Shown here piece after piece: positions 32,103-32,830 of a stretch of DNA of 64,000 nucleotides (positions within the stretch are counted from its first letter, which is position 1; the number at the start of each line of letters is the position of its first letter). Below the pieces are notes generated by a model. The model ran no database searches. It was not told where the DNA came from and saw nothing but the letters and a program-made list of their open reading frames with translations. The DNA lies in the NCBI RefSeq assembly GCF_016026235.1, contig NZ_CP065613.1; one strand, given 5' to 3'. The position numbers and the translations under genes are program-made. This stretch comes from Escherichia coli (GTDB taxonomy: Bacteria; Pseudomonadota; Gammaproteobacteria; Enterobacterales; Enterobacteriaceae).

Positions 32103-32789
32103 TTACCTTTCCAGTCGTCTTGCTCCACGTTCAGAGAGACGTTCGCGTACCGCTGACCGTTGCTCGTTATTCAATCGGGCAGTACGGTTACTGTCGTTTA
32201 GACTTTGCGGGTGGCTCTCCTGAACTTTCTCTCGAAAAACCTGACGTTGTTCAGGTGATGCCGATTGAACACGCTGGCGGGCGTTATCACGTTGCTGTTG
32301 GTTCAGTGGGCGCTGCTGTACTTTTTCCTTAAACACCTGGCGCTGCTCAGGCGAGGCTGACTGAATACGCTCACGCGCTGCGTCTCTTCGCTGCTGGATC
32401 TGTGGGTTAGTCTGCATTTTCTCGCGGACTGCCTGGCGCTGCTCAGGAGAAGCTGACTGATAACGCTGACGAGCGGCGTCCTTTTGTTGCTGGGTCAGTG
32501 GTTGGCGACGGCTGAAGTCGCGGAAGTCGTCATAGCTCCCATAGTGTTCAGCTTCATTAAACCGCTGTGCCGCTGCCTGACGTTGGGTATCTCGTGTAAT
32601 GACGGGGGCGGCGTGTGTTCGTTGCTGAAACTGACTTGCTGCCGCCTGACGCTGGCTGTCGCGTGTTGGAGCAGGTAGCTGCGTGGCACTCATTCCGCCG
32701 TTGACATCGGTTTGATGAAACCGCTTTGCCATATCCTGATCATGATAGGGCACACCATTACGGTAGTTTGGATTGTGCCGCCATGCCAT
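32103..32789 (-). pseudogene. yacH: C-terminal portion of yacH, upstream part displaced by prophage insertion
   Basis: Convergent ORF ending 72 bp after lpd as yacH does in K-12; reading frame open on its 5' side right up to the prophage junction; only 228 codons remain versus ~617 recalled for K-12. Confidence 0.6.
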
Positions 32790-32830
32790 ATTCTTATCAG
32801 TAAGTTGACATTATAAAAAAGCATTGCTTA
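32788..32830 (+). other. Prophage attL junction: degenerate core (tattcttatcagtaa) followed by lambda P' arm sequence
   Basis: Sequence from gttgacattataaaaaagcattgcttatcaatttgttgcaacgaacagg onward matches the lambda attP right arm as recalled; the preceding 15 bp match the lambda core GCTTTTTTATACTAA at only ~8/15. Confidence 0.6.

Follow-up and report, generated by a model that had tools for sequence, protein, structure and literature searches.

How does a prophage with the integrase and attachment-site arms of bacteriophage lambda come to lie inside yacH, away from the lambda site between gal and bio? The question is raised by a 64,000-nucleotide stretch of Escherichia coli DNA (assembly GCF_016026235.1, contig NZ_CP065613.1), here called the window, in which host DNA (aceEF-lpdA-yacH') extends up to position 32804 and runs directly into a lambda-type P' arm, int and xis. 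An earlier note on this DNA, made from the sequence alone, had described a lambda-family prophage inside yacH, off the gal-bio (ybhC/ybhB) attB, and Int, Xis and the P' and P arms bear that description out. The note also read the locus as a case of secondary-site integration, and on this point we arrive at a different account. We consider it probable that the prophage was inserted by lambda-type recombination through Int and integration host factor (IHF), and that its att is a natural "site-affinity" variant with a dedicated attB in yacH. With confidence only slightly better than even, we further propose that a circulating ipaH-carrying lambdoid family was retargeted from gal-bio to yacH solely by a swap of the 7-bp overlap, Int and att being otherwise unchanged, which would be natural evidence of "overlap capture". 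A secondary-site mechanism likely gave rise to the variant in the first place, rather than to the insertion in the window.

The junction between yacH and the integration module

The features on the two sides of the junction are listed by window coordinates and strand.

30607 to 32031, plus strand: host gene lpdA (dihydrolipoyl dehydrogenase), lying to the left of the junction, 99.9% identical to the annotated lpdA of E. coli FDAARGOS_943
32103 to 32804, minus strand: 3' remnant of yacH (DUF3300 protein, residues ~353 to 585), identical to the 3' part of FDAARGOS_943 yacH
32787 to 32879, plus strand: attL (B-O-P'), hybrid site of the lambda-type integration module, from a three-way alignment of the window, empty yacH and a primary-site attL
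32787 to 32793, plus strand: B core-type Int half-site CATATTC (host), in the position of lambda B (CTGCTTT)
32794 to 32800, plus strand: 7-bp overlap (strand exchange) TTATCAG, the same in all three of attL, attR and empty attB, as against TTTATAC in lambda
32801 to 32807, plus strand: C' core-type Int half-site, TAAGTTG as in lambda (reverse complement CAACTTA)
32877 to 33946, minus strand: int, lambda-type tyrosine integrase, a pseudogene here, split by a -1 frameshift into open reading frames (ORFs) of 131 and 230 amino acids
33924 to 34142, minus strand: xis (excisionase), aligned to lambda xis; the homologous gene in sibling loci has the Pfam Exc domain

The extent of attL, to +82 of the overlap center, is presumably that of the established lambda attP limits.

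On the host side, the nearest complete relative is FDAARGOS_943, whose pdhR-aceE-aceF-lpdA-yacH region matches window positions 17999 to 32807 at 99.94% identity, confirming lpd and yacH as the flanking host genes; window positions 1 to 18575 are colinear with its ftsA/ftsZ...ampE region. In that genome yacH is uninterrupted, encodes 585 amino acids and reads on past the junction, so that full-length yacH does not end at 32789. The 228 codons of yacH that the earlier note counted on this side are those of the ORF at 32103 to 32789, a truncated yacH opening at an internal Met (the first internal ATG), but the host sequence of the gene reaches 32804 and comprises 233 codons. The 5' sequence of yacH is absent from the window, as is attR, and the prophage runs off the window end.

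On the phage side, window positions 32791 to 34169 align with lambda 27727 to 29105 (P' arm, int and xis) at ~98% identity over 1,380 nucleotides (nt), and positions 32700 to 34000 are matched over at least 80% of their length, at 98 to 99%, by 54 phage records, among them lambda, 434-hybrids, HK97 and HK106. This match is far beyond chance. The note had placed the start of the lambda match at ~32803, and the arm does align with lambda attP: lambda-type sequence begins at 32801, TAAG at 32801 to 32804 is common to host and phage, and the first phage-only base is 32805. A G-to-A change at 32808 is restricted to the lineage of the window. Of the 110 nt of the P' arm, 2 are not those of lambda, including one in P'1 (CACTAT to CATTAT), and beside int the arm carries a predicted IHF site H' and predicted arm-type sites P'1 to P'3, names that we assume to carry over from lambda attP.

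The integrase is a lambda-related heterobivalent tyrosine integrase with an adjacent xis (98% nucleotide identity; int frameshifted in the window). The frameshift is the loss of one C from a C5 run (33618 to 33621). The intact 356-amino-acid Int of sibling loci differs from lambda Int only at H164P, A245T and I248V (~99% identity), none of which is a catalytic residue. A look-up of the 230- and 131-amino-acid Int fragments matched unrelated prophages at the primary ybhC site (loci L032 to L038 of our collection). The C5-run slip may be a recurrent inactivating hotspot or a recurrent sequencing error, and in the window a sequencing error is possible.

The site itself lacks the lambda 15-bp common core and the flanking ybhC (gal side) and ybhB (bio side) genes; it lies inside yacH, beside lpdA. 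Positions 32400 to 33300 contain ...GCCATGCCATATTCTTATCAGTAAGTTGACATTATAAAAAAGCATTGCTTATCAATTTGTTGCAACGAACAGGTCATTATCAGTC... across the junction. The 15 bp in the core position, TATTCTTATCAGTAA (32789 to 32803), agree with lambda GCTTTTTTATACTAA at 8 of 15 positions, as the note had estimated and direct reading upholds, and the overlap agrees at 3 of 7.

Recovery of attR and the empty site

The exact 228-amino-acid product was found on 11 draft or Logan contigs, among them GCA_002467135.1, GCA_002466675.1, SRR30892832 and ERR3372598, and across the junction those contigs match the window base for base. The junction is also present in 7 loci of a second lineage, lineage B, and in none of 5,426 complete RefSeq E. 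coli genomes. The other end of the prophage was reached through a homology search with the N-terminal part of YacH, which recovered P0104, a protein of 362 amino acids ending in ...GEHLTDK-KLNEKQ and a stop: YacH fused to a lambda-like P arm. When its tail (...LTDKKLNEKQ) was grafted on the YacH allele of the window lineage, exact matches appeared on 9 contigs, including GCA_002466675.1 and SRR30892832, samples that also hold attL. The window lineage is represented by these 11 attL and 9 attR contigs. Predicted attR fusions with the lambda P-arm tail (...KLNEKRKMI), with either a phage-type or a host-type overlap, gave no exact matches.

Two of the checks that the note had proposed could thus be carried out: attR was located beyond the window in the same lineage (L011, L012), and the attB was reconstructed from uninterrupted yacH. 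With slashes marking the edges of the overlap, the three sites read as follows.

attL: CATATTC/TTATCAG/TAAGTTG-P'
attR (window lineage; L011, L012): P-...TTTCTCGTTCAGCTTT/TTATCAG/TAAGATGCTC, that is, P-CAGCTTT, then TTATCAG, then TAAGATG and the yacH N terminus
Empty attB: CATATTC/TTATCAG/TAAGATGCTC, that is, CATATTC/TTATCAG/TAAGATG

The P arm thereby found outside the window is lambda-like (CAGGTCACTAATAC... conserved) and joined to the N-terminal part of yacH; it is ~13% diverged from lambda, with conserved P1/P2-type sequence, and is adjoined by an ipaH type III effector gene.

The junction arose by Int-type insertion, which duplicated the 7-bp overlap. The overlap lies between two inverted core-type Int sites, and exchange took place at its edges. 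The phage sites C (CAGCTTT) and C' (CAACTTA) are kept; the host sites are B (CATATTC) and B' (CATCTTA). The core-type consensus CAACTTNNT, reportedly due to Ross and Landy, is matched by the B 9-mer CATATTCTT at 5 of 7 specified positions, equal to lambda's own B, and the B' 9-mer CATCTTACT deviates from it at one position; judged by this comparison, the yacH half-sites appear acceptable for Int. The base at -3 is a host-type C in attL and a phage-type T in attR, with the switch from P to host at -3/-2, which places the left exchange at the canonical lambda Int top-strand cleavage position. A host-type C at -3 of attR, initially deduced from back-translation of P0104, was dropped, as the DNA shows T. 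Within the overlap, TTATCAG and TTTATAC share the first 2 bases and differ at positions 3, 4, 5 and 7, and all 4 of these informative positions are host-type at both junctions.

An assembly chimera, or a rearrangement without Int in which an inversion mediated by an insertion sequence (IS) or by homology joined lpdA-yacH to a distant prophage, would have some initial appeal, as the nearest complete genome has the two halves ~757 kb apart and these genomes have an active IS600. However, the junction is reproduced base for base in independent NCBI and Logan assemblies, contains no IS, and has a reciprocal partner with an exact 7-bp overlap duplication and Int-type boundaries. We regard this explanation as effectively refuted and give it almost no weight.

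A sibling prophage at the primary site

FDAARGOS_943 carries an ipaH-bearing lambdoid prophage (the gene annotated ipaHa) at the canonical ybhC/ybhB site. Its attL is CTGCTTT/TTTATAC/TAAGTTGG and its attR is ...CGGTCAGCTTT/TTTATAC/TAACTTGAGCG. The Int protein of this primary-site sibling is identical to the intact Ints of the yacH prophages, the P' arms are identical, the P arms differ at 1 of 255 nt, and the P arm together with the 5' part of ipaH is 99.8% identical. The single P-arm substitution falls outside the core. Among the att differences, that in the 7-bp overlap, with 3 of 7 positions in common, alone goes with the chromosomal site, so that relative to this sibling the att change is confined to the overlap and Int is unchanged, as in saf-type variants. 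The two prophages also share the ipaH cargo and the DUF4376/tail-fiber genes beside it; they differ in overlap, chromosomal site, mosaic internal genes and IS600 position.

The note had asked whether the gal-bio attB is occupied or deleted. It is occupied in this closest complete relative, and for the window lineage the answer was sought in contig breaks. Draft contigs of that lineage end at 32885 (two NCBI assemblies, L005 and L006) and at 32838 (Logan contig L008), which is 77 nt and 30 nt past the lineage-specific 32808 change. An assembler with k=77 or k=31 would break at those distances if a second lambda-type P'-int copy with the canonical G were present, and the breaks suggest such a copy in the window lineage.

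Retargeted att or classical secondary site

Lambda Int requires identity of the overlap between the two partners, and the sequence of the overlap itself is not read. The phage attP was most likely P-CAGCTTT/TTATCAG/TAAGTTG-P', that is, the lambda module with TTTATAC replaced by TTATCAG. This overlap would match that of yacH, which is flanked by the half-sites CATATTC and the reverse complement of TAAGATG. Under the identity rule, a phage with this attP would lose its affinity for gal-bio and gain yacH as what should be an efficient dedicated site. As to its origin, an ancestor probably inserted once in yacH as a true secondary site and, when it excised, captured the overlap of the host; such capture would be expected to replace the overlap as a whole, up to the cleavage sites. 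The module travels together with ipaH and occurs in what appear to be enteroinvasive E. coli lineages.

The alternative closest to the earlier note is classical secondary-site lysogeny, in which a phage with the canonical attP (TTTATAC) entered yacH as a surrogate site at low frequency, perhaps because the primary attB was occupied, and the resulting heteroduplexes were later corrected to host type. Several findings fit: the primary-site sibling has the same Int and arms, the closest complete relative has its primary site filled, the contig breaks 77 and 30 nt past the 32808 change are expected of a second P'-int copy, and yacH is without this junction in all complete RefSeq genomes. Recombination between unlike overlaps yields heteroduplexes, which, without repair, would be expected to leave one phage-type and one host-type junction on each chromosome. 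Both junctions are instead host-type here, which favors a phage that already carried TTATCAG; attL and attR both carry the attB overlap, as identity between attB and the proposed attP predicts. Heterologous overlaps are very poor recombination substrates, saf changes matched in both partners restore recombination, and lambda secondary sites conserve identity on the overlap's left side (Laprise et al., PMC2817482). In yacH this left-side identity amounts to only 2 nt. Canonical lambda attP, which shares 3 of 7 overlap positions with yacH and 2 nt at the left end, would find there a poor secondary site, by the published criteria a very poor substrate. The classical explanation also requires that the same poor site be hit independently in two or three diverged hosts by one ipaH-linked module, although none of ~2,000 other copies of lambda-int prophages in complete genomes lies at yacH. 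Furthermore, a phage facing an occupied primary site would more easily insert into resident att sites or by homology. We therefore judge classical secondary-site lysogeny unlikely, though it deserves more weight than any other rival. Of the earlier reading, the non-canonical site inside yacH stands; the pattern of secondary-site integration fits poorly with the host-type overlap at both junctions, the 2-nt left identity, the recurrence described below and a sibling that differs by the overlap.

A second unusual insertion by the same Int bears on this choice. E. coli SC422 (NZ_LR778143.1; L023:2440-2600 and L039:29980-30260) has a prophage with the same Int (WP_000533643.1) in ygbE (DUF3561), downstream of cysC, a singleton among 5,426 genomes. 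Its attL is ...GTTCTTC/TTTATCT/TAAGTTGG and its attR is CAGCTTT/TTTATCT/ACACCTGG, with the same non-lambda overlap at both ends. This prophage could carry a second overlap variant or be a genuine one-off secondary-site lysogen. It may accordingly be a second, independent example of overlap capture; as a one-off, it lends the classical explanation a non-canonical insertion by this very Int.

Recurrence across host lineages

Sporadic, non-recurrent occupancy, as expected of a secondary site, is not what was observed: the same junction occurs in two or three diverged backgrounds. Lineage B (L013 to L020) has a host flank 0.9% diverged from that of the window lineage, plus indels, is without two islands of the window and has an intact int; one member protein is named from an O28ac:NM strain. 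Its loci are clonal (0 to 3 single-nucleotide polymorphisms [SNPs] in 9 kb), and its early regions are of two types, RecT-type and Rad52/SSB-type. A possible third background is L009 (GCA_900450475.1), whose attR host flank is 98.4% identical to that of L011, the first SNPs appearing at a distance of 105 bp from the junction. On the phage side it matches L011 at 99.87% identity, yet this side lies beside baseplate-type tail genes and not lambda J/Lom; an exact look-up of its IpaH returned its own contig only. The yacH insertion thus apparently recurs in two or three diverged, enteroinvasive-looking host backgrounds with different phage backbones. In two sublineages of lineage B, L018 and L019, IS600 has entered int independently, at sites that correspond to window positions 33881 and 33802, and their contigs end in IS600.

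If one ancient insertion, of whichever kind, had passed between E. coli lineages with its flanking DNA through homologous recombination, this recurrence would be uninformative on site preference. The near-identical att arms and ipaH in all yacH lysogens would be consistent with a single origin, as would the clonality of the lineage B loci and a stretch of 350 bp of yacH adjoining attL that is identical between both lineages. However, that stretch is equally identical in the uninterrupted FDAARGOS_943 allele, and it thus reflects ordinary conservation rather than import. On the attL side the lineages diverge again from 351 bp, and on the attR side the differences between the L009 and L011 hosts begin at 105 bp and continue at 1.6%, so that recombination end points would have to hug the prophage on both sides. 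We regard a single origin with later spread as improbable.

Searches for the variant phage and use of the site

The predicted variant attP stretch is CAGCTTTTTATCAGTAAGTTG and its canonical counterpart CAGCTTTTTTATACTAAGTTG. The ipaH-P arm was found in no sequenced phage, and a scan of GTDB species representatives for lambda-type P' arms gave one match, which is canonical. No ORF spans the predicted attP core, and protein look-ups are therefore blind to attP. The attB is generally available, as expected of a dedicated site: a 67-nt stretch containing it occurs once each in 5,317 complete genomes, 4,740 of which match it at 99% identity or better. Of the 5,416 complete genomes with the surrounding 601-nt region, 5,411 have it uninterrupted; in H199, the one disrupted genome listed, the break falls ~57 nt past the core. 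In the library searched, no paper names yacH as a prophage integration site.

Several results weigh against a retargeted att. A free or circular attP with TTATCAG, or an attL with this overlap, had no matches in IMG/VR and none in the JGI metagenomes; none of ~120 lambda-type P' arms sampled from IMG/VR carries TTATCAG, all being canonical bar one with an IS10 insertion; and the best INPHARED match to the predicted attP reaches 92.9%. All 5,416 complete RefSeq E. coli genomes with this part of yacH have the site unoccupied, and occupancy in only two or three lineages implies that the phage, if active, is rare. The different backbones behind identical ends could stem from later recombination with other phages. 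Finally, the ygbE prophage shows that like overlaps at both junctions may arise in one-off events, for example, by mismatch repair of heteroduplex overlaps.

Three further observations on att sites came from these surveys. The sampled arm with IS10, L102 (IMGVR_UViG_2687453449_000005), had an odd P' junction that was considered as an overlap variant and rejected: at ~1,225 nt from the end of the contig, an IS10 end (...GGGGATCTCTCAG) abuts TAC-TAAGTTGG, so that the element interrupts the overlap in a lambda-type att core. Four IMG/VR loci, L057 among them, have a primary-site attL one T short in the core T-run (CCTGCTTTTTATAC), either because the left core site truly varies in length or through a homopolymer error. 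An ENA metagenome scaffold (ERZ28598104; L016:8440-8700) holds an uninterrupted yacH attB with a 100-N gap at the att site; the contigs flanking the gap overlap by ~55 nt, the signature of an assembly-graph branch, and the sample possibly contained a mixed population of lysogens and non-lysogens.

The rest of the prophage and its surroundings

The remainder of the prophage in the window is made up as follows.

34227 to 39949, minus strand: early-left region with two anti-repressor genes, ea22-like genes, abc2 anti-RecBCD, SSB and a Sak4-like annealase (PHROG matches; mosaic similarity to the FDAARGOS_943 prophage)
39950 to 41213, minus strand: IS600 within the early-left operon (kil/cIII region), 99.4% identical to annotated FDAARGOS_943 IS600 copies, with a transposase PHROG match
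41716 to 64000, plus strand: remaining lambdoid prophage (PHROG matches), in the order N, cI-like repressor (43816 to 44550, minus strand), cII, O, P, ninB, methylase, toxin-antitoxin pair, ant and Q, followed by lysis genes, terminase, portal (58783 to 60285), a protease/capsid fusion and the first tail genes
42326 to 43785, plus strand: IS4-family element flanked by N and the cI-like repressor (304 bits to the NCBIfam IS4 transposase, for which the cutoff is 115)

The gene order is the usual lambdoid one, and the portal gene is intact by tblastn. The IS4-family element has terminal inverted repeats of 35 nt at 42326 to 42360 and 43751 to 43785; its 448-amino-acid ORF between N and cI was considered as a defense gene and rejected, having no PADLOC match and being the IS4 transposase. 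In the nin region, one product of a two-gene cassette (49272 to 49952, minus strand) matches a PHROG toxin family of toxin-antitoxin systems. The cassette has no PADLOC match, and its FDAARGOS_943 counterpart is annotated RelE/ParE plus HTH.

With a frameshifted int and insertions of IS600 and an IS4-family element, the prophage of the window is decaying. Excision in this genome would need Int supplied in trans, which is plausible, as the sibling Int is identical to the intact form and attL and attR share one overlap.

Two features of the host flank lie away from the prophage. Between aroP and pdhR, at window ~20982 to 24450 (L001 2984 to 6449), a 593-amino-acid Hcp (TssD) is fused to a pyocin-S/colicin-type DNase domain and followed by immunity genes and orphan DNase fragments in ~78%-identical direct repeats; this island is missing in lineage B. 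Between yacG and mutT, at window ~6470 to 7820 (by colinearity with L004 10756 to 12104), there is an IS3-family element that FDAARGOS_943 also has. With this element, IS600 and the IS4-family element, the DNA has the look of an IS-rich genome, Shigella-like or enteroinvasive.

Comparison with known systems and significance

By integrase, arms and core architecture, as read from sequence, the yacH prophage is a member of the lambda Int/att module family, with a different defining core and site. It has in common with lambda, 434, HK97, HK106 and many ybhC/ybhB prophages the Int, xis, P' arm, P arm, C and C' sites, 7-bp overlap and exchange positions. It differs in its overlap (TTATCAG, not TTTATAC), in an attB that lies in the yacH coding sequence and not in the ybhC-ybhB intergenic region, in the B and B' half-sites, and in a ~13% diverged P arm with ipaH cargo.

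Classical lambda secondary sites are said to include galT, proAB, trpC and others, as Rutkai et al. reportedly described in 2003. Such sites likewise hold lambda-type prophages away from gal-bio, inside a gene and at partial core similarity (8 of 15 for yacH). They are occupied sporadically by phages with canonical attP and conserve left-overlap identity, whereas the yacH site has little left identity, host-type overlaps at both junctions and recurrent occupancy. Lambda saf mutants are laboratory single-base changes, in contrast to the yacH variant, which differs at 4 of 7 overlap positions, is natural and occurs in several wild lineages. The likeness is that an overlap-confined change alters the preferred partner site while Int is unchanged, as set out in PMC2817482. 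According to the same source, the saf mutants (Weisberg, Enquist, Foeller and Landy 1983) came from secondary-site lysogens, an origin like that proposed for the yacH variant.

If the classical explanation holds after all, the locus is a documented wild secondary-site lysogen that inactivates yacH, which is of modest interest. If our account of a retargeted att is true, wild prophages with the same Int and near-identical arms sit at different addresses by virtue of the overlap, and new integration sites can evolve by this route. Two ipaH phages that are near-identical could then share one enteroinvasive genome with no competition for attB, which raises effector gene dosage, and the variant would provide a natural orthogonal att pair for lambda-Int cloning or genome engineering. 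Integrase typing alone would have no predictive power for the insertion site. Lambda integration is a textbook system, and the rule that overlap identity and not overlap sequence governs partner choice comes from laboratory mutants. The underlying biology was thus predicted by forty-year-old genetics; an identical Int at different natural addresses, here with a virulence effector, would be an instructive instance of it.

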